NCBI GenBank assembly: GCA_027925325.1
Contig: AP027133.1
Coordinates: forward strand, 480,001 to 512,000
Direction: 5' to 3'
Source: Candidatus Saccharimonadota bacterium
GTDB taxonomy: Bacteria > Bacillota_I > Bacilli_A > Mycoplasmatales > Hepatoplasmataceae
DNA: 32,000 nt
Made by a program: the position numbers and the translations under genes. Shown here one piece after another: positions 6,465-22,089 of the stretch (positions are counted from its first letter, which is position 1; each line of letters opens with the position of its first letter). The notes below the pieces were generated by a model. The model saw nothing but the letters and a program-made list of their open reading frames with translations, did no database searches and was not told the origin of the DNA.

Positions 6465-8771
6465 CTAATTACTTAAATTTCCCGAATCATATAATTGATC
6501 AATTGTCTTAAGTTCATAACTATCCCCTTCAAAAGAAAAATATGATAATAATTGATGTAAACTTGCATCTCAATTATAAATATCAAAATTATTTAAATAA
6601 ATACTTCCATAATCTTCAAAGAAATTATTTGATCTTGCGACTTGCGAAGTAGTTTTAGAGATATCATCTCAAAGTAATTGATTATAAAATTGATTTAAAA
6701 TCTCAGAAGGATCTGATTCTAAATCTCAATCAAGATCTTCACCCTCCTCAAAGGCAGATTTTTCAGCATCACTAAATTCTCCTCCATCTAAGTTATAAGT
6801 ATTATTAACATAATTTAAATATTGATTAAAAATAAGATCATTTGCAACCAAACTTAATCATGATTGATAACTTGATAAAATATCATAATCATATTGATAA
6901 AGTTGACTAATTGGATTTGGATTACTTTGTAATAATTTTTGATCAAGTTGATATGCAAGCATCACTTGTGCATCACTTATTAAAGTTGGATCATTTTGAT
7001 TTAAAACGTTATTATGCACTAAATGCATTCCATCAATTGATTGTGTAAGATAATAATCATCTTCATAAATTATCGAATTATCAATATTAGCATTACTGTC
7101 AGTTATATTTGCTTTAACATTACTAAAAGTAAAACTAGTTCCATCATAATTATAATAATTGATTGTAGGAATTGTTAAGTGATAAAAAATTTGTCGATCT
7201 TCCTTACTAATTAGATTTGTTGTTGAATCAACTTTAGCATAAAAACCTTTGTTTATCTGTGCAACAACCTGTGCTCCAGCTGTTGCACTAGTTAAATTGC
7301 TAATATATGTATCGGTATTTTCGCCACTAAAAGTATCATTAATAGAATTATATTTATCGATATCAGTTGATGGTAAAGGATCATCAGATCAAGTATTACC
7401 ATCACTTGTTGTTGCTCCATAAGCAGGAATAAAAAATCTATATTTATTTAAATTGGTAATAGGTAATGTCTCACCATATGCACCATAAATATCTTTAAAA
7501 ACATCACGATATTCTAATGCTACTTCTTCGTGGAAGGAATAATAATATTGAAACATTTGACTAGAATCATAAGTATTTAAATCAAAATCAGGATTATTAT
7601 AATTTTCACTAATTAAATTTCCATATATTTCCATTAAAATAAGTGAAACAGTAGAATTACTAGCAATGCTATCTGATAAGGTAGTAACACCAGAATCTGT
7701 AAATGATGGTGATGAAGTATAATCTGGATTTTTAAAATCTAAAAATTCTCAATCATCAATTGAAGCACCATTTATTGCTTGATAAGAGATTACAGCAAGA
7801 TCAGCAAGAAATACTCAAATATCATCGACATTATCAACGGTTAAAGCAAATGAATCTGTTCCACTTATTAATCCATTTTTAAGAGGCGTTTCGAATGTAA
7901 ATGGAATTAAAATATCTTCATAAGAGATTGGTTTATAAATTTTTTGATAAAAATCAAATAAAAATTGATGATTAATTACTGTCTTATTTAAAATTGGATC
8001 ATCATATAAAATTGTTTCTTGTTGGTAATCACCATTTAAAGCATAATATCTTGATGATCCTGTTTCTAAAGTTGACCGATATTTTTTGCTATTAGAATCG
8101 GTTTTATCATCAAAATAAAGATATGTATCTGAAGTTGTAATATCTGAAATTGATGATAAAAGTGAGGTTGAAATTAAATTAGTACGATATTGCCCCTCTG
8201 TATCAAATCCTTTTGATAAAAGATTTTGCTCTCATTCATCTTTTCAATCATTTCCATACTCATCACGATAAGTATCTTTTTCATCATTTATCTGATTATC
8301 TGCTTTATTTTCAGCATCATCTAAATCTTTTTGCGATCCTAAATCATCATTTATTAAAATCTGATAAGCTCAAATAACAGAATTATCTTTCAAATATTTT
8401 GTTTCATATTGTGCAGGTCTACTTTGCTTATCAATAATATATTCTTTAATTTGCTCTTTTCGATAACAAACACCACCAATACAAATTTGATTTGGCTCCT
8501 TTTTATTTGATAATCCTAATCCCAGTCCTAATCCTAATGCCAATAAAATAATAAAAATTATAAAAATAATTATAATTGCTTTTAAATGTCTTTTAAATCA
8601 ATTTTTCTCTGAACTATCTTGTTTATTATAAAAAGAGTGTTCTTCATTCCCTTTGTTATCACTCTTTTGTTTATCATTTATGTCAGTCTTTTTTTTATTT
8701 TGTTCATTTTTATTTTTTGAAGGTTCTTCATTAAAAATAAGTGAATCTTTTACTTCTCGATGTTGAGCCAT
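6465..8771 (-). CDS. Hypothetical signal-anchored acidic protein (768 aa) with a possible SurA_N/PrsA-like N-terminal ectodomain
   Basis: ATG is at 8771-8769. A ~75-aa charged cytoplasmic head precedes the TM AIIIIFIIFIILLALGLGLGLGL and a D/N/Y-rich ectodomain. The frame was checked codon by codon over 7321-8771, plus shorter stretches at 6961-7019 and 6465-6539. The TAG stop at 6467-6465 overlaps the ribosome-binding site of the downstream gene. The track shows only 7389-7634. Confidence 0.7.
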
Positions 8772-8912
8772 AATTAATATTATTATAATAAAAAAATATT
8801 TTATATATTTATAAAATAAATAAATATTAATAGTAAAATTATCTTAGATTAAAATTTTTAAATGCATTTAATTTAATATCAGATTTTATTATAAACAGAA
8901 AAAGGTATAAAA

Positions 8913-10196
8913 ATGATTAAACTTAACTTAAAATATACAAAAGTAGCACATAAAATGCAAAAATACCAATCACAAATTGATAATATTCATCAAGTGATTA
9001 TAGATCGTACAGGGGAAGGAAATGAGATGCTTGATTGATATGATTGAGCAAATAAAATTACAGATACTGAAATTAATGCAATAAATTTTAAAATTAAAAA
9101 TCTAAAGACAATTAACAAAATAGATACTTTGCTAGTAATAGGAATCGGTGGTTCATATTTGGGAGCAAAAGCCGGAATAGATTTTATTAAAGGTAAGATG
9201 AGAGCCGATGATAAAATAATTTTTGCAGGAATCAATCTTTCAGGAAGTTATTATAAACAAATTGAAGAAAAACTTAAAAATAGAAATTGAGCAATTTGTG
9301 TTATTTCAAAATCAGGAAAAACAATTGAACCAGCGATTGCTTTTAGATATTTCAGTGACTTATTAGAAAAAAAAGTTGGAAAAGCAAAAATGAAAGATCT
9401 AATAACGGTCATTACTGATCAAAAAAAAGGTTTATTAAATGATTTTGTTGATAAATATAATTATCAGAAATTTGTTATTCCCGATGGAATCGGTGGGAGA
9501 TTTTCAGCGATTACAGCTGTCGGACTTTTTCCAATGGCTTTTGCTGGAGTAGATATTATAAAAATTTTAAACGGAGTAAGAAAAGCAAATAATGATTTAA
9601 AATCTAATAAATTAAAAGATAATATCGCTTATCAATATGCGGTTACAAGATATATTTTGCACAAAAAAAATAAATTGACATCAGAAATTTTTATTACCTA
9701 TAGCGAAGATTTTTTGATGTTGCAAGAATGACTTAAACAGTTATTTGCAGAATCAGAAGGGAAAAAGGGAAAAGGTTTATTGCCAAATTCTTTAACATAT
9801 ACAAGAGATCTTCATTCTCTTGGGCAATTTATTCAAGAAGGGAAAAAAACATTTTTTGAAACTAATATTTGGCAAGAAAGTGAAGAAAGCGAAATTAAGA
9901 TTTTAAAAAATGATTTAGATTTAGATAATCTTAATTATCTTGAAGGCAAAACAATTGATTACGTTAATAAACAAGCTTTAAAGGGAGTCGTAAAAGCTCA
10001 TGTTGAAAATGGAAATATTGCCAATATAATTATTAGTTTTAAAAGAAATGATGAATTAACACTTGGCTATTTATGATATTTCTTTTTTATAGCCGTTACT
10101 TGCTCAGGTTATTTATTAAAAATAAATCCTTTTAATCAACCGGGAGTAGAAATTTATAAAAATAATTTAAATAAAAATTTACGAATAAAAAAATAA
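8913..10196 (+). CDS. pgi: Glucose-6-phosphate isomerase
   Basis: Track fragments 9390-9731 and 9780-10076 are in one frame with ATG 8913. PGI motifs are present ([32 protein letters not shown]). The protein is 427 aa with several TGA Trp codons. Confidence 0.88.
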
Positions 10197-10215
10197 TTAA
10201 TCATTTTTTTATATA

Positions 10216-10224
10216 TGGTAAAAT
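10216..10224 (+). promoter_or_regulatory. Extended -10 promoter element (TGGTAAAAT) for the ABC transporter operon
   Basis: TGnTAAAAT lies 35 nt upstream of ATG 10259, with an AAAGGAAT Shine-Dalgarno-like sequence in between. The same nonamer precedes the rplK leader. Confidence 0.4.
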
Positions 10225-10258
10225 TTTAATTGATAATTTTAAAAAATAAAGGAATTAT

Positions 10259-11269
10259 ATGGATAAAAAATTAGAAAAATTAACAGTTCAAGAACTTAAA
10301 GATGAACTTAAAAAGCAAAATATTAAATTTAAATCTTCCGATAAAAAGGCAGATTTAATTAAATTATTAGAAAACCATCATAAAAAAGATGAAAAAGTTA
10401 GTAAAAAATCTCCTAAAAGATTAATTGCTAAATTTAGAAAAAAGCGTATTAATCAAAAAGAAGATGGAAAAGAAAAGTTAATTGAGGGAAAATATCAATT
10501 AGTAATTAAAAATCTTACTAAAAAATATGGAAAAGTAGAAGTTTTAAATGGAATTACTTTAAAGGTTAAACCGGGAGAAAAGATTGCTATTGTTGGTGCA
10601 AATGGAGCTGGAAAAAGTACATTATCAGAAATTATTGCTCAAGTAAAAGAACCAACAGGAGGAGAATTACATTATTCTTTCGGAAAATCAAAAGAAACAA
10701 TTTCTGCCAAAATTGGAATTCAATTCCAAGATTCATCATATCCTGATTTTTATAAAGTAAGTGATATTGTCAAATTTATTATTGATGCCTCTGAAATTAA
10801 AATTTCAAATGAACAATTAGATCATCTTTATGAAACTTTTGATGTTAAAAATTTTAAAAGAGAAGTTGCAAAAGGACTTTCAGGTGGACAACAACAACGT
10901 TTAAACATTCTTCTTGCAATTGTCAATAATCCGAAAATTCTAATTTTAGATGAGGTTGGAACAGGTTTAGATGTTGAATCTAGAACAAAAATTAAATCAT
11001 ATATTAAATCATATATCCATGAAAATGATGCGACTTTATTACTTGTATCGCATAACTCTGATGAAGTTATAGAACTTGTTGATCGTGTCGTTGTTATTCA
11101 TAGTGGAAAAATATATGAAGATAAACCACTAAAAGAAATTTTGAAAAAATGAAAAGTATTTGATGATTATATGAATAATCTTTATTTAAATGTTTTCAAA
11201 AAGAATTTAGATTTAAGAGTAAATAAATCAGGTCGACAAAAAGAAAAAAAGGAGAAAATAAATAAATAA
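10259..11269 (+). CDS. ABC transporter ATP-binding protein with an N-terminal SAP/HeH-like extension
   Basis: Motifs are Walker A GANGAGKST, signature LSGGQQQR and Walker B ILILDE. The ORF continues through TGA at 11150-11152 to TAA 11267-11269, giving 336 aa. Residues ~8-40 (LTVQELKDELKKQNIKFKSSDKKADLIKLL) match the SAP/Rho_N helix-extended-helix pattern. Confidence 0.85.
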
Positions 11270-11271
11270 AA

Positions 11272-12120
11272 ATGTTTGCACTTTATAAAATGCAAGCCAG
11301 AGTTTGATTTAAGAATCCTTTTTCTTATTTCAGTTTCATATTTGCGACATTTTTCCTTGTTGTATTGGGTGCAATATCTGCCGTTCAAGATACAACATCA
11401 GGAGCAAGTGATCAACAGGTTCAATTGTTAGTTCAAACTTCATTTGGAATGGCAATCTCAGCTATGATCATAAGTTCAGCAAATAACTTTGGTTTTACAA
11501 TCTTTAACTTAAGAGATTCGATTCTTTTAAAAAGAATCGGAGCTACCAAAATTACAAAAACACAGGTTATCTCAGAAATTGTCTTATGAGGGATAACAAC
11601 ATTATTTTTTGTAATGATTTGAATCTTTTTCTTACAATGATTATTGGGAGTAACCGGCTTCTTCGGACAATATTCTACCGGTGAAAATATCGAAACAGAT
11701 TGAGGAAGAATTAAATGAGGAGGATTAATTGTTGCTATATTAATCGGAGCTGTCGTAAGTTACACAATTGCTCTCTTCTTTATTTCTATCTCTCCTAATA
11801 CTGATACTTACAATATAATTACTTTATTTTACTTCTTCTTCGCCGTCTTTTTAGGGGGAGGGGTAACAATTGCAAATACAAGAGATTGAATGAATATCGC
11901 TGGTAAATTAACGCCTATCGGTTGAAATAGAGAATTCATCGTCAGTTCTGTAAGTGGATTTGATGTCTTTAATTTCACAAGCGCTAATATCGTTAATCCT
12001 CCATTTGACAGTTTTGAAAAAATTGAAGGATACACTAGTGCCTTAGACTTCTTTATGCCATTTGTATTTATGATTATTGTAATGCCATTTACAGTTAAGG
12101 CCTTTAAGTGAGATCAATAA
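11272..12120 (+). CDS. ABC-2 type transporter permease (paralog 1)
   Basis: The ATG lies 2 nt after the ATPase stop. The 282-aa product is multi-TM and hydrophobic with many TGA Trp codons. It shares the motif LLKRIGATKITK with the next gene. Confidence 0.75.
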
Positions 12121-12139
12121 GATGGAAAGGAAATAAAAA

Positions 12140-12910
12140 ATGACTGCGCTTTATAAATTAATTTTAAAAACCAATATTAAATCACCAGCATTAGCCTTTC
12201 CGATTGTTACACCAATTGTTTTTATTTTGGTATTTGTAACAGGGACAAATGATCAAGAACTTACAACTTCGTTCTTTAAAATTATTTCAATAATGCTAAT
12301 GCAATCTGGAACTTTTGGATTTGGATTTAACATGATTGCCTTAAAAAAATCAATCATGTTAAAAAGAATCGGAGCTACAAAGATTAGAAAATGAGAGGTT
12401 CTAACCGCAAATATCCTTTATGGATGGACAATGCTTTTAATTAGTTTGGTTTGAACAACATCTTTTGCATTTATTCTTTCTGCTTCAGGATATTATATCT
12501 CTCCTGTTGATGGTAGTACTTTACATCTTAACTTTGCTGGAGTTACAGGTTGAGGAGGAAATTGAGGATATATCGTATTAGGAATTCTTATTTCAATCCT
12601 TGTTGGATACTCAATCGGAATTATGTTTGTTTCATTAGCAAAAACCGATGAACAATTTGCAATGTATGCGATGTTTTATCTATTCTTTACAATCCTTCTT
12701 GCTGGATTATTAATTAATAATGAAATTAGACAAGAAATACCATTTATGGTCTGGGTCGGATACTTTAATCCAACCGTTTGGGCCAATAGTGTCATAAACT
12801 TTGGTGTAACCGGTGTTAATAATGAGGAATTGTGATTAGAAATAGTTGTTCCAATTTTAATGTCATTCTTAGCAATTGGGGTTTCATTAAAAACATTTAA
12901 ATGAGATTAA
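12140..12910 (+). CDS. ABC-2 type transporter permease (paralog 2)
   Basis: The 256-aa product is multi-TM and carries the motif MLKRIGATKIRK. Track fragments 12140-12394 and 12623-12835 are in the same frame and join through TGA codons. Both permeases end in FKWD. Confidence 0.75.
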
Positions 12911-12946
12911 ATCTTTAGAGAAGAAAATTTTAAACCATTTAAAAAC

Positions 12947-12983
12947 AAAGCTAGATTTATCAAAAATCTAGCTTTTCTTTTAT
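12947..12983 (+). terminator. Intrinsic terminator of the ABC operon
   Basis: A 12-bp stem AAAGCTAGATTT / AAATCTAGCTTT (12947-12958 / 12964-12975) has a 5-nt loop and is followed by TTTCTTTTAT. Confidence 0.6.
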
Positions 12984-13025
12984 CTAATAATATAATGAAA
13001 AAATCTTTATATTTTGCTAAAAAAA

Positions 13026-13033
13026 TGTATAAT
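13026..13033 (+). promoter_or_regulatory. Candidate -10 element (TGTATAAT) for the tRNA cluster
   Basis: TATAAT at 13028-13033 is preceded by TG and lies ~28 nt upstream of the tRNA-Tyr 5' end. No convincing -35 element is present. Confidence 0.35.
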
Positions 13034-13060
13034 TAATTGGATATAAAATCCAAGGTATTT

Positions 13061-13146
13061 GGAGGGGTAGCGAAGTCTGGCTAAACGCGGGTGACTGTAG
13101 ATCATTTCCCTTTGGGTTCGGGGGTTCGAATCCCTCCCCCTCCACC
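13061..13146 (+). tRNA. tRNA-Tyr (GTA), class II with a long variable arm, CCA encoded
   Basis: The acceptor stem is GGAGGGG/CCCCTCC, the anticodon loop is CTGTAGA and the T-arm is GGGGGTTCGAATCCCTC. It folds by hand into a cloverleaf. Confidence 0.9.
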
Positions 13147-13151
13147 ATAAA

Positions 13152-13226
13152 TGGTCTGTAGCCAAGCGGTAAGGCACATGGTTTTGGTCCATGTATGCGT
13201 AGGTTCGAATCCTGCCAGACCAGCCA
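13152..13226 (+). tRNA. tRNA-Gln (TTG), CCA encoded
   Basis: The acceptor stem is TGGTCTG/CAGACCA, the anticodon stem-loop is CATGG-TTTTGGT-CCATG and the T-loop is GGTTCGAATCC. Confidence 0.9.
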
Positions 13227-13230
13227 TTAT

Positions 13231-13306
13231 GGCCTCATAGCTCAGTCGGTAGAGCAACTGACTCTTAATCAGTGGGTCGAAGGTTCAAGTCCTTCTGGGG
13301 TCACCA
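13231..13306 (+). tRNA. tRNA-Lys (CTT), CCA encoded
   Basis: The anticodon stem-loop is ACTGA-CTCTTAA-TCAGT, the D-arm is AGCTCAGTCGGTAGAGC and the T-arm is GAAGGTTCAAGTCCTTC. Confidence 0.9.
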
Positions 13307-13344
13307 TCAGTTTTTAGCAATTAATTAAATTGTCTTTGTTAATT

Positions 13345-13420
<76 letters not shown>

Positions 13421-13424
13421 TATA

Positions 13425-13513
13425 GCCCAGGTGGTGGAATTTGGTAGACACGAGGGACTTAAGCTCCCTTGGTCATTTTGACTGTGCGGGTTCAAGTCCC
13501 GCTCTGGGCACCA
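13425..13513 (+). tRNA. tRNA-Leu (TAA), class II, CCA encoded
   Basis: The acceptor stem is GCCCAGG/CTGGGC, the anticodon stem-loop is AGGGA-CTTAAGC-TCCCT, a long variable arm is present and the T-arm is GCGGGTTCAAGTCCCGC. Confidence 0.9.
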
Positions 13514-13517
13514 CAAG

Positions 13518-13543
13518 AGTAAGTTTAACTTACTTTTTTTTTA
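13518..13543 (+). terminator. Intrinsic terminator of the tRNA cluster
   Basis: The stem AGTAAGT / ACTTACT has a TTA loop and is followed by a run of T residues. Confidence 0.6.
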
Positions 13544-13585
13544 AAATTATTTTTATATTAGAATTATTTTAAAAAAAAGGTAAAT

Positions 13586-13594
13586 TGGTATAAT
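13586..13594 (+). promoter_or_regulatory. Extended -10 element (TGGTATAAT)
   Basis: A perfect TATAAT at 13589-13594 with an upstream TG lies 17 nt before ATG 13611. Confidence 0.45.
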
Positions 13595-13610
13595 TATATC
13601 GCTTGTTATT

Positions 13611-14234
13611 ATGAATAATAAAAATTTTAAATTTAAAATAGATGAAAGAAATATTCAACTAATATTAAATCGCATCAAAACAAATTCAAAATTAAAATGA
13701 ATTCTAATTTTAGGATTTGTTCTTATTCCTTATACCTTATTTTGAGTTTTATTCGGTGGAAATGAAAGTAATTTCTTCCTTTGATTAAATCAATATGATG
13801 ATGCCCCTCGTTTAGCATATGTAATTATTGATTATGGAATGCAATGATTAATCGCTGTTGTATGGGCAATTGTCGCTTTATTTTCAATTGATATCTTAAG
13901 TAAAAAAAATAAAGATATCAAAAAAGATGTATATTTTTCAATCGTCGGTTGAACCTTTGTGATGATCAATTTTTGATTAATTCCGATCGGTCTTTGAACA
14001 TTACTGCTCGCGATTCCATTTTATGTCTGCGGAGTAGCAATTGTTATCGTTATTCAAATCTTTTTATTTATGAAAAATTACCAAAAAAACCTGCAAAATA
14101 TGCAAGATAATTTTCCTGATGTTTTCAATCAACAAAATAATCAAGATGAAATAAAAATTGAAGATCATAAAAAAGATAAAGACGATAAAGATAATAAAAA
14201 AGATGATGATCAAAATACAATTGATATCAAATAA
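13611..14234 (+). CDS. Hypothetical small integral membrane protein with a K/D-rich C-terminal tail (207 aa)
   Basis: It was translated codon by codon and contains seven in-frame TGA (Trp) codons, so it is completely invisible in the ORF track. About four hydrophobic segments are present (ILILGFVLIPYTLFWVLF, WLIAVVWAIVALF, IVGWTFVMINFWLIPIGLW, VCGVAIVIVIQIFLF). The tail is EDHKKDKDDKDNKKDDDQ. Confidence 0.65.
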
Positions 14235-14250
14235 TTATTTAATTATCATC

Positions 14251-14955
14251 TTAAAGAATTTTGCTTTTAATCGCTTTATTCTCAATTTTAATCTTTAAGT
14301 TAAATTTCTTTGCTAATCTTATCAAAGTAATATAAAGAATATAATTATCCTTGTATCGAAAACAGATTATCTTATCACCACGTGCGTAAATGATAAATCC
14401 ATAATCTTGCAGTTGTACTTTTTTAATATCACGATACTTAAAAATATCAATAATTTGTGATCTCTTTTGATCATAGAAAACGATCTCAGAAGCAGAAAAA
14501 ATCAATTCTCCCTTGTTCTCTAATTGATAGATATGATTTTGATCTAATAAAAATTTATTTATATTCTTATAAAGAAAATAAGCGATCTTTTCTAATTTAA
14601 TTCCTCGATAAGAAGATTCATAGGGAGTTTCAATTGTTTTAAAAAATCTTCGATTTGTAAAATCCCTTGCTAACATATATTGTAAATTTAAATCTTCATA
14701 ATTATATAATCTTAAATCTAATTTTAAGATTATATTTTTCATTTTATTAAGAAAAAGTTGATTGTTACGATAATTTTTATTTTTTCAATCAGCAAACAAA
14801 ATACCCTTATATTCATTAAATAAATCATAATCAAAATCTTTTCCAATATCTTTGATATCTTTTTTTGATAATTTATCTAAATTAGCAAGATTTAACCTCT
14901 GATTAATCTTATAAAATTGATATTGAATATTTGCTTTTTCCTTAAATGTTGTCAT
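14251..14955 (-). CDS. Hypothetical protein (234 aa), last gene of the accessory island
   Basis: Track ORF 14251-14742 extends 71 codons upstream in frame through one TGA to ATG 14955-14953 (MTTFKEKANIQYQFYKINQR). No motif was recognised. The C-terminal half is beta-rich (GELIFSASEIVFYDQKRSQIIDIFKYRDIKKVQLQDYGFIIYARGDKIICF), which loosely resembles bacterial PH/GRAM-like domains. Confidence 0.6.
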
Positions 14956-14987
14956 AATGAAATTTATATTACTATTTAATTTTAAAT

Positions 14988-16097
14988 TTAAATAAAATAT
15001 TTTTTAAAATAATTTTCAATTATTTTAATTTTGTTAGGGAGATGAAAAATTAGATCTTCTTTCATATCTTGTATTACTTTAATTAATTGTTTTTTATATT
15101 TTATAGAAAAATAAATTCCATCATAATAAAAAATTTTAGATAAGGATTTAATTGATTCAAAATATTTAAAATCATCTTGATTTAATCAATTATCAAATAT
15201 AACTGTTTTATTATGATAAATTTTATTTCTTAAATCTTTAACATTTTTTAATTCCTCAATATATTCGGCTTTAAAATTTCTTATCTTTTCTGAATCTAAT
15301 TCATTGAAATTTTTAAAATAAAAATCTCAAGAATTCCAATTCGCTGTTAATTCATAATTTTTAAAAATTAATCTAAATAAATTTTTAAAAGATTCATTTT
15401 CAAATTTTCTTATTAGTTCAATATAATCCGAAAAATTCATTTCCTCAAATACAATTTCAATATTTTCATTAGAGGATTTTAAATTTTCTATAGTTGTAAT
15501 TGATTCGATATATTTTTTAAATTCAGGTGTTGGATTCTGAAGTATTTTAGGTGTAAATTTAATCTTATTAAATGGTAAATCTTGAACTCTAATTATAGTC
15601 ATTAAAATATTTCTTAAATATATTTCAAATTCATTTAATCAATTTCTTATAATTTCTCTTGATAAATTTTGAAAATTCCAAAATTTATCAATTATAAAAG
15701 GATTTAAAAATTCGTTATTTTCTGAATTTATTTTCAATATCTTTTTATATATATGCCAAATAAATCTAAAATTATAAATATTTGCACATGAAAAGAACTT
15801 ATTTAAATCAATAAAATTACTATTGAAAGGAGTTTTAAATTGTAATCTCATTAGATAACTATTTAGTAATTTTTTATCTGATAAAATTTTTTTAATTTTA
15901 TCTTGAAATAATAAATTCCAAACCTTTTCATAATATTTATTATTACTTATAAAGTTTAATTGTTTTTCAATGTCATTTCGAATATTATATATATAAAGAT
16001 TATCTTGATTGATAATTTCATCTATTTCAGATTTAATTTCTTTTTCATTAATTCTTTTTTTATTTTCATCCATTTCTTTATAAAATCCATTTTCCAT
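14988..16097 (-). CDS. Abi_2 (AbiD/AbiF-like) abortive-infection family protein with a HEPN Rx4H motif (369 aa)
   Basis: Track ORFs 15639-16097 and 15327-15602 are in the same frame and join through TGA at 15639-15641. The frame then continues through TGA at 15327-15329 to TAA 14990-14988. The ordered Abi_2-like blocks are IYNFRFIWHIYKKIL, EFEIYLRNILMTII, NFSDYIELIRKF and KDLRNKIYHNKTVIF (R-x4-H). Confidence 0.7.
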
Positions 16098-16140
16098 TTT
16101 TTTACCTTTTTTAAAATAAAATTTTAAATTTACGTATAGA

Positions 16141-16938
16141 TTAATTAAAATTAATATTATAAATCTCTAAAATATTATTAATTTCTCTCTTTAAATTATT
16201 CTTAATTATTTCATTGTCAGAAATATTACTGAAAATACTTTTTAAATCAGAAAATGATATATTTGAAAATTTTTTTCAAAAATTTTCTCCACGAAATAAA
16301 TTTTTATTTTCTTTTAAATAATCATCACTCCATCTTTTTTTATCATTAAAAAAATATAAAATAGGATTTATATCTTTATAACTTATTTTATTTTTCTCAA
16401 AATATCTTCTCAAAGAAAATGTAGTTTCAAATAATTTCTTATAAATATTTTCATGTTTTCCAGTATCGTGATTATCTAAAAATTTTATTTCAAATAAATA
16501 ATAATTTTCATTATTGTCATATAACAAAAGATCAATATCTTTTCTTTTGATTTTTTTGTTACTTGTTAAATCTTTATATTTTACATTTTTAAAAAAATTT
16601 AAATTAAAATCTCTTTTATTCTTCATATAATCTTCAATCGCATCATTTTCTTCTTTAGAAATAAGGCTGTCAATTTTTTTACCTGATAAATTTGATAAAT
16701 TATATTTTTGATCATTTTTCAAGATATCTCTAATTAATTTCTCAATATAGTTTCCAAAACTAATATTTAAAGATTGTAGATAGCTTATTAAATTTCTATA
16801 TTCAATCGGTAGAAAATGAATTTTGGTTTTGTTTTCTTTAGTTTTTTTATCAAATTCTTTTGCTTCAATTTTAGATTTTATTAATTTATTTGTATTATCT
16901 AAAATTATTCTTTCTAATTCAGTTTTATTTAAATTCAC
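16141..16938 (-). CDS. Putative type II restriction endonuclease, PD-(D/E)xK fold (265 aa)
   Basis: GTG 16938-16936 is the first start codon after an in-frame stop, with AAAGGAA 10 nt upstream. The ORF reads through TGA at 16276-16278 to TAA 16143-16141. The candidate catalytic motif is KDIDLLLYDNNENYYLFEIKFLD (D ... E-x-K). It lies immediately downstream of the methyltransferase gene and overlaps it. Confidence 0.6.
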
Positions 16939-18031
16939 TTTGATTAATTCCTTTTCTTATATCATCTATTAAAATATAATTATCCTCTATTTTTATATAT
17001 CAATATCTTCATCCATTTAAATATCTACCATTTTCAAATAATTCTGTTGCTTTATGAATAGAATACTCATTTTTATTAATTTCTATTTTTCCTTCTAAAT
17101 TTAGAAGAGCTTTTTCTTTTCTTGAATTATATAAATATTTTGTTTTTAATTTATTTTCTTTTATTAAATTAATAATTTTTGGATATATAATCTTTTGATC
17201 AAATTTAGAATTAATATGATCTATTAATGAATAATCATCATCTTGAATTGATTTAACATTATGAATTCTTTCATTGGCATATTTTACATATTCAATATTA
17301 TTTTCAATCCCTATAAAATTTCGATGCAATTTTTTTGCAACTGCTCCTGTTGTTCCTGTACCAAAAAATGGATCTAAAATAATATCATTTCTTTTTGTAG
17401 TTGCTAAGATAATTCTTTCTAATAATTTTTCAGGTTTTTGAGTATTATGCAATTTATTCCCATCATGATCTTTTAATCTTTCTTTTCCTGAACATATTGG
17501 AAATTTTCAAACACTTCGCATTTGCTTATTATCATTTAAATTTTTCATCGTTTTATAATTAAATGTAAATTTAGAATTTTTTGATTTTACAAATCATATT
17601 AAATTCTCATTTGAATTTACAAATTTAGTTCCCCTAAAATTAGGAGTAGGATTTGTCTTTTCTCAAGTTATGTCATTAATTACTCAAAAATTCAAATTTT
17701 GAATAATATATCCTAATCTATAAATATTATGAAATGTTCCCATTACTCAAATTGAACCATTATCTTTTAAAATTCTTTTACATTGAGTTAATCATTTTTT
17801 TGTAAAATTATCATATTCTTTATAAGATCCAAATTTATCCCACTCATCATTTACACCTTTATATTTATTTCCATCGATTCTGTAAAGAATTCCAGCCCCT
17901 GTTTGCATAAAATAAGGAGGATCAGCAAAAATTAAATCAACAGATTTTGAAGGAATCTTTTTTAATTCTTTTAAACTATCTCCTAAAATTATTTTATTTT
18001 TTAATTTATTTATGTCCGTGTTCATTTTCAT
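16925..18031 (-). CDS. Site-specific DNA methyltransferase (N6-adenine), beta class, CcrM/M.HinfI family (368 aa), probable GANTC specificity
   Basis: Track ORFs 17792-18031 and 17009-17452 are in the same frame and join through several TGA codons. The frame continues past TGA 17009-17011 to TAA 16927-16925. Motif IV IFADPPY precedes motif I ILDPFFGTGTTG, with HNTQKPEKLLERII between them. The family-specific C-terminal domain is SIHKATELFENGRYLNGWRYWYI...IDDIR. Confidence 0.9.
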
Positions 18032-18038
18032 TTAACTA

Positions 18039-18044
18039 ATTATA
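18039..18044 (-). promoter_or_regulatory. Candidate -10 (TATAAT on the minus strand) for the methyltransferase/endonuclease/Abi transcription unit
   Basis: The minus strand reads TTTATAATTAGTTAAATGAAAATG. The TATAAT lies between the rpoC terminator and the methyltransferase ATG at 18031, which implies a very short 5' UTR. Confidence 0.35.
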
Positions 18045-18060
18045 AATAATCATTTAATAA

Positions 18061-18093
18061 ATATAAAAAATCTCTTAAAATAAGAGATTTTTC
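18061..18093 (-). terminator. Intrinsic terminator downstream of rpoC
   Basis: The minus strand reads AAATCTCTTA-TTT-TAAGAGATTT followed by TTTATAT. It begins 19 nt after the rpoC TAA. Confidence 0.55.
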
Positions 18094-18111
18094 TATTAAT
18101 AATATAAATAT

Positions 18112-22089
<3,978 letters not shown>

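Follow-up and report, generated by a model that had tools for sequence, protein, structure and literature searches.

What is the block of genes that lies beside rpoC in the genome of Candidatus Hepatoplasma scabrum, which of its genes belong together, and how did they come to be there? The stretch under study (hereafter, the window) comprises 32,000 nucleotides of the metagenome-assembled genome (MAG) AP027133.1 of this woodlouse gut symbiont, a circular molecule of 606,194 bp with a guanine-plus-cytosine (GC) content of 24.7%; the host is Porcellio scaber (PMC10928387). An initial annotation, made from the sequence alone, described four consecutive genes of the window as an accessory defence island, composed of a DNA methyltransferase, an endonuclease, an Abi_2/HEPN protein and an orphan, between a tRNA cluster and rpoC. 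Open reading frames (ORFs) were re-called using translation table 4 (code 4), and the block was found to contain the following genes.

16925-18031, minus strand: methyltransferase (gene 1), 368 amino acids
16141-16938, minus strand: endonuclease (gene 2), 265 amino acids, GTG start
14988-16097, minus strand: Abi-like gene (gene 3), 369 amino acids
14251-14955, minus strand: ORF4 (gene 4), 234 amino acids

The four minus-strand genes agree exactly with those originally described, as do the 14-nt overlap of the methyltransferase and endonuclease genes (16925-16938) and the intergenic gaps of 43 nt (16098-16140, between the endonuclease and Abi-like genes) and 32 nt (14956-14987, between the Abi-like gene and ORF4). 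Each gene contains in-frame TGA codons (eight, one, three and one, respectively), which bears out the proposed adaptation to code 4. The TGA codons of the methyltransferase gene sit at tryptophan (Trp) positions that are Trp in Caulobacter CcrM too.

Further loci, designated L001 to L006, were found using homologues of ORF4 and of gene 3, and all were oriented with rpoC on the left. The contents of the interval between rpoC and ORF4 are as follows.

Window: methyltransferase, endonuclease, Abi-like gene
L005 (strain Ps, CWGI01000001): Abi-like gene, methyltransferase, endonuclease, small membrane ORF of 91 amino acids
L006: Abi-like gene, DUF262/GmrSD_N gene
L002: HNH nuclease, methyltransferase, endonuclease, GmrSD_N gene
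L003: methyltransferase, endonuclease; the contig ends upstream, and the rpoC side is not seen
L001 (AP027132): HNH nuclease, membrane ORF of 217 amino acids, ORF of 426 amino acids (weak HNH_2), fused C5 and N6/N4 methyltransferase of 589 amino acids
L004 (Candidatus Hepatoplasma vulgare, AP027131): Abi-like gene located elsewhere, near the 23S rRNA gene

The rpoC-to-ORF4 interval is 2.6-4.8 kb long, and the six loci in which it was compared (all of the above with the exception of L004) present six different contents between conserved flanks. The cross-strain comparison that the initial annotation had called for thus supports its claim that the block beside rpoC is accessory and variable among relatives. 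Most of the cassette genes that could be assigned to a family are defence-related, and a few small or orphan ORFs have no assignment. For the HNH protein the similarity is to type IV methyl-directed enzymes (mREase_IV, 5.8e-14), and for proteins with DUF262/GmrSD_N to NsnA and PD-T4-2_A; the fused methyltransferase of L001 matches a type II model (2.7e-202). We conclude that the stretch from the rpoC terminator to ORF4 is a defence hotspot.

A comparison of L005 with L006 bears on the way in which the contents of this interval change. The two loci encode almost the same proteins in the flanks (99% identity for rpoC, 100% for both ABC2b and the membrane protein, 98% for the HNH protein), with synonymous divergence (dS) of 0.006-0.07, whereas their Abi-like proteins are just 48% identical (dS 0.63) and their ORF4 proteins 92% identical (dS 0.34). 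Sliding identity is ~96% up to the rpoC stop codon and terminator and drops to 50-70% precisely there. On the other side it is 90-95% through ORF4, collapses in the spacer between ORF4 and the HNH gene and then rises to 98-100%. Since nearly identical flanks enclose different cassettes and the drops are sharp, the whole segment, ORF4 included, appears to have been replaced rather than to have diverged in place, and this pattern implies homologous recombination with a diverged donor as the probable route. Likewise, L002 and L006 share 96% identity in rpoC, and their GmrSD-like proteins are only 44% identical. In-frame TGA codons are present in all cassette genes of all loci; it follows that the pool from which cassettes are exchanged uses code 4. 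No ORF for an integrase or transposase was found in the interval, and a search for direct or inverted repeats flanking it gave none that were convincing.

The locus thus resembles known defence islands and hotspots in its conserved flanks, in a defence content that varies among close relatives, in sharp boundaries and in deeply diverged alleles. It differs from them in being a slot with neither integrase, transposase, tRNA attachment site nor flanking repeat, and in its location directly 3' of the rpoBC operon in a reduced symbiont genome of ~0.6 Mb.

The fourth gene of the block behaves differently from the other three. ORF4 was found at the same position in six of six loci compared; the window protein is 74-82% identical to those of L001, L002, L003, L005 and L006 (74-92% across genomes; 74-78% to proteins of Candidatus Hepatoplasma crinochetorum), and the identities follow the core phylogeny. 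The ratio of nonsynonymous to synonymous divergence (dN/dS), 0.09-0.19, indicates purifying selection. Given this constancy and selection, ORF4 is not accessory, and the four-gene island as first drawn has to be redrawn: the variable part is the interval from the rpoC terminator to ORF4. ORF4 itself is a conserved Hepatoplasma-specific gene that marks the right edge of this interval. Searches of Pfam, PADLOC, NCBIfam and PHROGs yielded no family match for it; a scan of genome contigs with ORF4 retrieved strain Ps only, and a scan of metagenomes returned nothing. The AF2 model of ORF4 has a pLDDT of 50, and the best Foldseek matches are to PH/PTB domains (E 0.02-0.3). With a model this poor, such matches are a hint only, and N-terminal helices followed by a C-terminal PH/PTB-like beta domain are a possible architecture.

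The two genes closest to rpoC are predicted to constitute a type II restriction-modification pair of the HinfI type. The methyltransferase matches the full Pfam model N6_N4_Mtase (1.8e-67) and PADLOC MTase_II (6.8e-146), and it aligns with CcrM (PDB 6pbd) over residues 13-361, the C-terminal domain included (6.3e-105). The catalytic DPPY (motif IV, amino acid 37) is N-terminal to the FFGTGTTG sequence (motif I, FxGxG, amino acid 222) expected to bind S-adenosylmethionine, and the dN/dS of the gene, 0.12-0.28, indicates purifying selection. The protein can be classified, as far as its sequence tells, as a beta-class N6-adenine DNA methyltransferase of the CcrM/M.HinfI kind and, being a full-length CcrM homologue, is predicted to recognise GANTC. 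The endonuclease matches PADLOC REase_II (1.8e-25) and contains a PD-(D/E)XK-like DIDLL...FEIK sequence at amino acids 134-152. The window protein has no match to Pfam PF09520, a model that its 73%-identical L003 orthologue matches at 9.6e-9. Endonuclease homologues with 70-73% identity directly follow the methyltransferase in L002, L003 and L005. In every pair the endonucleases are ~70% identical, and the methyltransferases 78%-91%. We therefore assign gene 2 a predicted function of a HinfI-family type II restriction endonuclease. The calls made originally for both genes, with PADLOC named as a check, are sustained and sharpened to a HinfI/CcrM-type pair by matches in Pfam, PADLOC, NCBIfam (scores are given below) and PDB.

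As in the HinfI system and the CcrM family, the methyltransferase aligns over its full length (E 6e-105), DPPY precedes FxGxG, and the endonuclease gene overlaps in the same orientation. The differences are that the window genes fall below the equivalog cutoffs, have a very high AT content and encode Trp with TGA, and that the specificity is a predicted one. The GANTC methyltransferase of Mycoplasma agalactiae, which belongs to the CcrM family, is an orphan that is present in all strains (PMC9465063), whereas the one in the window is paired with an endonuclease and varies between strains. The published defence inventory of Ca. H. scabrum does not list a type II restriction enzyme in its Table 4 (PMC10928387), and the HinfI-type pair (16141-18031) thus seems to have been missed there. 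The locus adds to that inventory a complete HinfI-type pair and a candidate abortive infection gene.

For the Abi-like gene, exhaustive phmmer searches of 1.84 billion representative proteins retrieved gene 3 and four relatives with 34-48% identity, i.e., a family of five members. At least two of the four relatives are in Hepatoplasma assemblies, one comes from an assembly with flanks 99-100% identical to those of strain Ps, and the fourth is a fragment. A word-indexed search of 5.8 billion proteins returned the query alone when a single sequence was used, and the query plus the protein designated P0009 when the family profile was used. A profile search of PDB sequences with gene 3 gave a spurious exotoxin match only, and tblastn searches of plasmids and phages with P0001 and P0009 gave no match or noise. 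The family alignment reveals conserved FExxLR, FEEMxFxDY and LRNKIxHxKT motifs, which in gene 3 read FEIYLR (amino acids 157-162, 15612-15629), IEIVFEEMNF (amino acids 213-222, 15432-15461) and LRNKIYH (amino acids 289-295, 15213-15233). The last of these, LRNKI(Y/F/S)H, corresponds to the HEPN Rx4-6H (RNxxxH) signature, is invariant in four of four full-length members and lines up with RNxcAH in genuine Abi_2 proteins. The AF2 model, which was obtained with a shallow alignment, is all-helical (pLDDT 75.5, pTM 0.68).

An Abi_2 reference was assembled by searching a plasmid collection with a short consensus peptide; this retrieved 181 records, and nearly all of the listed ones are annotated as 'Abi family protein'. 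Sixteen diverse plasmid Abi family proteins were aligned, and the four that were checked all match Pfam PF07751 at ~1e-50. When the gene 3 family was compared with these 16 proteins by hhalign, a probability of 84.5% was obtained (E 7e-6, score 47.7, 178 columns), with template positions 28-214, the whole Pfam Abi_2 domain, covered by the alignment. The three motifs are in register: FE(I)YLR with iEIsfRt, IEIVFEEMNF with PIWvavEvlsFG and LRNKIYH with iRNxcAH. Column shuffles scored 12.3 +/- 2.4 (maximum 22.6), the reversed template scored 16.8, and seven other AT-rich Hepatoplasma proteins reached probabilities of at most 1.1%. We take the Abi_2 signal to be genuine with moderate confidence, though largely borne by the motifs. 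Gene 3 is accordingly presented as a candidate for a remote Abi_2/AbiD-AbiF-like HEPN protein and not as a certified member, and the Abi_2/HEPN label given to it earlier holds in that reduced form: the hhalign result and the conserved motifs speak for it, while the failure of profile databases to recognise the protein and the lack of an abiF RNA, both taken up below, speak against it.

The likeness to Abi_2 (PF07751; lactococcal AbiD/AbiD1/AbiF, Clostridioides difficile AbiF) extends to size (369 amino acids, against 342-367 in the lactococcal and enterococcal forms), to an all-alpha fold and to the three collinear motifs that include RNxxxH. Abi2/AbiD/AbiF genes have been reported inside restriction-modification operons and beside ParB/HNH DNase proteins (PMC3710099), a context that matches the neighbourhoods of the Hepatoplasma genes, where a single Abi-like gene stands beside restriction-modification and DUF262 genes. 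On the side of differences, the family has IEIVFEEMNF in place of PIW...E..sFG and (I/Y)H in place of AH, and gene 3 is neither detected by the Pfam and PADLOC models nor preceded by the abiF RNA motif (RF03085); in AbiF systems that have been characterised, this motif lies upstream and serves as the antitoxin (PMC12373285). No other Rfam family was found to be associated with the island. An orphan ORF of 342 amino acids that lies 3' of ORF4 in L003 (2758-3786) and contains an Rx4H-like LLRDDVMH sequence was considered as a further relative and rejected, as its profile is not significantly similar to either the Abi-like family or Abi_2.

The transcription signals found around the block, together with its neighbours on the side away from rpoC, are listed below.

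18061-18093, minus strand: intrinsic-terminator-like hairpin of rpoC, AAAAATCTCTTA-TTT-TAAGAGATTTTT and a T-run, the left boundary of the variable interval
18039-18067, minus strand: promoter-like TTTATA-17-TATAAT, the top match in 13400-18400 (score 10/12)
14082-14106, minus strand: terminator-like hairpin and T-run, 145 nt past the ORF4 stop codon, inside the 3' end of a convergent gene of 207 amino acids
13611-14234, plus strand: membrane-protein ORF, 207 amino acids, between tRNA-Leu and ORF4
13425-13513: tRNA-Leu

The hairpin at 18061-18093 folds with -16 kcal/mol (z = -2.8), and 0 of 200 shuffled sequences fold equally well. Terminator-like hairpins with stems of different sequence occur at the same spot 3' of rpoC in L001, L002, L005 and L006, the other loci in which the 3' end of rpoC is present. 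The proposal that an intrinsic terminator closes rpoC at this position was therefore correct; since the stem has only two G-C pairs, it is missed by a consensus terminator scan. The TATAAT box (18044-18039) that had been taken for the block's own promoter is indeed present and belongs to the best match in the region, but promoter-like matches are frequent in such AT-rich DNA (63 found versus 48 expected), and the TTTATA-17-TATAAT match is thus weak evidence. The -10 box ends 7 nt ahead of the methyltransferase ATG (18031), a distance that suggests a leaderless or nearly leaderless mRNA. TATAAT-like boxes were observed 5-12 nt before the ATG of the methyltransferase gene (18039-18044) and of ORF4 (14956-14987) in every locus (L001-L006), and there is no Shine-Dalgarno sequence before the methyltransferase or ORF4 ATG, which again suggests leaderless mRNAs.

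The hairpin at 14082-14106 is the sole minus-strand terminator-like site in 13400-18400, none being found between the four genes, and it is a possible end of the transcription unit. It is plausible, judging from these signals, that the four genes form one transcription unit that starts from the promoter-like site after the rpoC terminator. The placement of the block between the tRNA cluster and rpoC was accurate on the rpoC side; on the tRNA side the membrane-protein ORF of 207 amino acids, which had been overlooked, intervenes, so that the block does not directly adjoin the tRNA cluster.

The block had been judged by eye to be AT-richer than its flanks, and the GC and codon-usage calculations proposed at that time agree. 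GC content is 0.166 in the Abi-like gene, 0.168 in the endonuclease gene, 0.215 in the methyltransferase gene and 0.218 in ORF4, and 0.27 +/- 0.03 in the other 22 genes of the window. GC content at third codon positions (GC3) is 0.084-0.105 in the four genes and 0.15 +/- 0.04 in the other window genes, and overlaps that of several resident genes; the deficit is located chiefly at codon positions 1 and 2. The low GC content is thus mostly a matter of amino acid composition rather than of synonymous sites, which makes it weak evidence for foreign origin. The Abi-like gene uses TGG at four of its seven Trp codons, though it is the most AT-rich gene of the window, whereas TGG accounts for 7 of 79 Trp codons in other window genes (Fisher p = 0.004). 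In the L005 and L006 homologues, all Trp codons are TGA.

Our preferred reading, which we regard as probable, is that the slot after the rpoC terminator holds interchangeable anti-phage cassettes, and that in Ca. H. scabrum it is filled by a HinfI-type pair and a divergent Abi-like gene. According to this model, the methyltransferase would methylate GANTC at its adenine in both strands, and the endonuclease, a putative PD-(D/E)XK enzyme, would cut unmethylated GANTC sites of incoming DNA, its translation being coupled to that of the methyltransferase by the 14-nt overlap. The Abi-like protein, probably a HEPN ribonuclease with RNxxxH as its active motif, would be activated on infection and shut down or kill the infected cell, so that abortive infection may serve as a second layer behind restriction. 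Transcription of the cassette genes would begin at a leaderless promoter that follows the rpoC terminator; both this co-transcription and the ribonuclease and abortive function of gene 3 are predictions from motifs and signals. Cassettes would be swapped via homologous recombination, with breakpoints at the rpoC stop codon or terminator and just past ORF4. A bolder and tentative version, which we consider somewhat less likely to be right than wrong, holds that the Abi-like gene represents a new branch of AbiD/AbiF HEPN proteins, seen only in Hepatoplasma, which has lost the abiF RNA antitoxin and is controlled otherwise, and that the slot is a dedicated integrase-free exchange site in which ORF4 would act as a recombination anchor or a shared accessory factor.

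A number of results count against the reading of the slot as a seat of anti-phage cassettes, or against the identities given to its genes. The hotspot rests on the six loci compared, and we know of no Hepatoplasma phage. The methyltransferase matches the NCBIfam CcrM model (4.7e-131) with 436.9 bits, below the 830-bit equivalog cutoff, and the endonuclease matches NCBIfam restrict_HinfI (4.4e-38) with 131 bits, below the 175-bit cutoff. GANTC sites in the window number 93 against an expectation of 81, so that depletion as a restriction footprint is absent and composition is uninformative as to activity. Gene 3 has no match among the Pfam, PADLOC, NCBIfam and PHROGs hidden Markov models (HMMs) beyond HEPN_Swt1 at E = 1. 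With PADLOC none was seen at E up to 0.1, and none of the five family members matches the Pfam Abi_2 HMM even at E <= 10. An Abi_2 HMM constructed for this comparison, with every filter disabled (--max), gave family members no score above that of shuffled sequences. Foldseek comparison of the gene 3 model with PDB gave no significant match, the best being Cas13d (9m33_A, E 0.24, probability 0.13), and the comparison with BFVD gave no match. When the hhalign comparison was repeated with 15-column blocks in shuffled arrangement, with the motifs intact but their order changed, the scores were 28.0 +/- 6.7, and 1 of 45 reached the real score, which places most of the signal at the level of motifs. 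The abiF RNA motif RF03085 was not matched at E <= 10 in positions 13400-18400 of the window or at E <= 1 in L004-L006; only 43 nt separate gene 3 from the endonuclease gene upstream of it in the window. Finally, the dN/dS of gene 3 is ~0.7-0.8, at saturation, and relaxed constraint is possible.

Several of these results would be expected if gene 3 were a fast-evolving, lineage-specific helical protein of unrelated function that resembles Abi_2 motifs by chance. The absence of a significant Abi_2 or HEPN match in HMM and structure searches, the small size of the family (five members) together with its high dN/dS, the position of the Ca. H. vulgare homologue outside the rpoC slot near an rRNA gene, and the single block shuffle that equals the real hhalign score all fit this explanation. 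We nevertheless hold it to be unlikely: the hhalign alignment brings three collinear motifs together over the entire Abi_2 domain with a score far above those of column-shuffled, reversed and other-protein controls, RNxxxH is kept by every full-length family member, and the protein has the size of lactococcal-type Abi proteins. Furthermore, in three of four genomes the Abi-like gene adjoins restriction-modification or DUF262 genes, which is the published association (PMC3710099). A parallel doubt applies to the HinfI-type pair, where the methyltransferase might be mainly a CcrM-like epigenetic regulator and the endonuclease a decaying remnant, in which case the block would provide no active defence. 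Such a role could be argued from the full-length homology to CcrM, from the strain-universal orphan GANTC methyltransferase of M. agalactiae, a proposed regulator (PMC9465063), and from the fact that GANTC is not avoided within the window; the endonuclease, moreover, fails Pfam PF09520 and diverges faster than the methyltransferase (70% versus 91% identity between L002 and L005). This alternative appears very unlikely to us, because the endonuclease ORF is intact and full-length in four of four genomes with the methyltransferase, always immediately 3' and tightly coupled to it, and retains the PD-(D/E)XK-like motif. Its dN/dS of 0.25-0.36, a sign of purifying selection, argues against decay, and L001 and L006 lack the methyltransferase, so that the genus does not require it as a regulator.

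The other two alternatives concern the origin of the block and the place of ORF4 in it. A recent acquisition from outside the genus, from another mollicute or a phage, would account for the GC content of 0.17-0.22, low relative to both the neighbouring genes and the genome as a whole, and for the excess of TGG in the Abi-like gene. We rate it as highly improbable. Orthologues of the methyltransferase and endonuclease occupy the same locus in three other Hepatoplasma lineages, and their dS between the window and other Hepatoplasma, 0.53-0.66, equals that of core genes (rpoC 0.68, ABC2b 0.77-0.88), which indicates that the restriction-modification genes have long resided in the genus. The GC deficit falls mainly on codon positions 1 and 2 with GC3 overlapping that of resident genes, every cassette gene carries in-frame TGA, the interval has no integrase, transposase or flanking direct repeats, and among the relatives that were traced in the search of 1.84 billion representatives, no member of the Abi-like family came from outside Hepatoplasma. 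Of the two origins originally offered, transfer from another mollicute or long residence, the latter is hence the better option. As to ORF4, it could be a functional component of the cassette (a regulator, sensor or anti-toxin), and the four-gene unit would then have been drawn correctly. It invariably follows the cassette directly, in the same orientation, and borders the slot; the window has no terminator between it and gene 3, and its dS between L005 and L006, far in excess of that of the flanks, shows that it travels with the exchanged segment. This reading of ORF4 is, in our estimate, quite unlikely, as the gene keeps its position whatever the cassette (HinfI pair, Abi-like, GmrSD-like or fused methyltransferase), lacks similarity to any defence family, appears to have its own -10-like box 5-12 nt before the ATG in all loci and follows the core phylogeny in its identities. 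We thus retain the probable reading of a slot with exchangeable cassettes, bounded by rpoC and ORF4.

The constituents of the locus, a type II restriction-modification system, an Abi-like gene and a defence hotspot, are of known kinds, and the locus is a well-documented example that leaves the way such systems are thought to work unchanged. Modestly new are an Abi_2-like candidate family that has so far been met in Hepatoplasma alone and is invisible to HMMs, and an integrase-free slot for cassette exchange directly 3' of rpoBC in a 0.6-Mb symbiont. If the bolder version is true, the slot would maintain immune diversity in a host-restricted symbiont genome of ~0.6 Mb. Cassette swapping between strains with a genome of ~600 kb would point to ongoing exposure to phages or mobile DNA and to gene flow within the genus. 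The Abi-like family also suggests that a known defence family can escape standard HMM annotation when AT bias is extreme, so that the defence content of mollicutes may be undercounted.

Some further features of the compared loci were recorded. The HNH nuclease gene (243-251 amino acids; L001 5239-5973, L002 5949-6704, L005 14293-15024 and L006 13164-13895) lies on different sides of the cassette depending on the strain and is absent from the window. The N-terminal ~110 amino acids of its product are found also at the N-terminus of an ABC-transporter ATPase in L001 (15479-15814) and L003 (8660-8968), where the ATPase is 454-456 amino acids long, compared with 336 amino acids in the window (10259-11269).

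Between ORF4 and the membrane-protein gene (207-214 amino acids), an Ion_trans gene for a K+ channel-like protein of 353-363 amino acids is present in five of the five other loci (L001 10708-11769, L002 10692-11768, L003 3830-4921, L005 15156-16232 and L006 14027-15103) and is missing from the window. There the convergent stop codons are 16 nt apart (14234-14251), which looks like a clean absence or deletion of Ion_trans in Ca. H. scabrum. Inside the Ion_trans coding sequence of L005 (15474-15587) and L006 (14345-14458), the Rfam model K_chan_RES gave matches of 41.6-44.4 bits, below the gathering threshold of 51, which most likely reflect coding similarity to K+ channels and not an RNA element. 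In the window, the sign of the GC skew flips at ~8.8 kb and near 13.5 kb and tracks the switch of gene orientation (8500-13500): the plus-strand block 8913-14234 is flanked by minus-strand blocks, and the skew does not indicate a replication origin.

In Ca. H. vulgare (L004 7500-12300), the surroundings of the Abi-like homologue, which is located ~3.3 kb from a 23S rRNA gene, are rich in small ORFs. Of these, one (8523-8819) duplicates a fragment of a neighbouring gene of 309 amino acids (11284-12213), and the region looks like another degraded or variable one.

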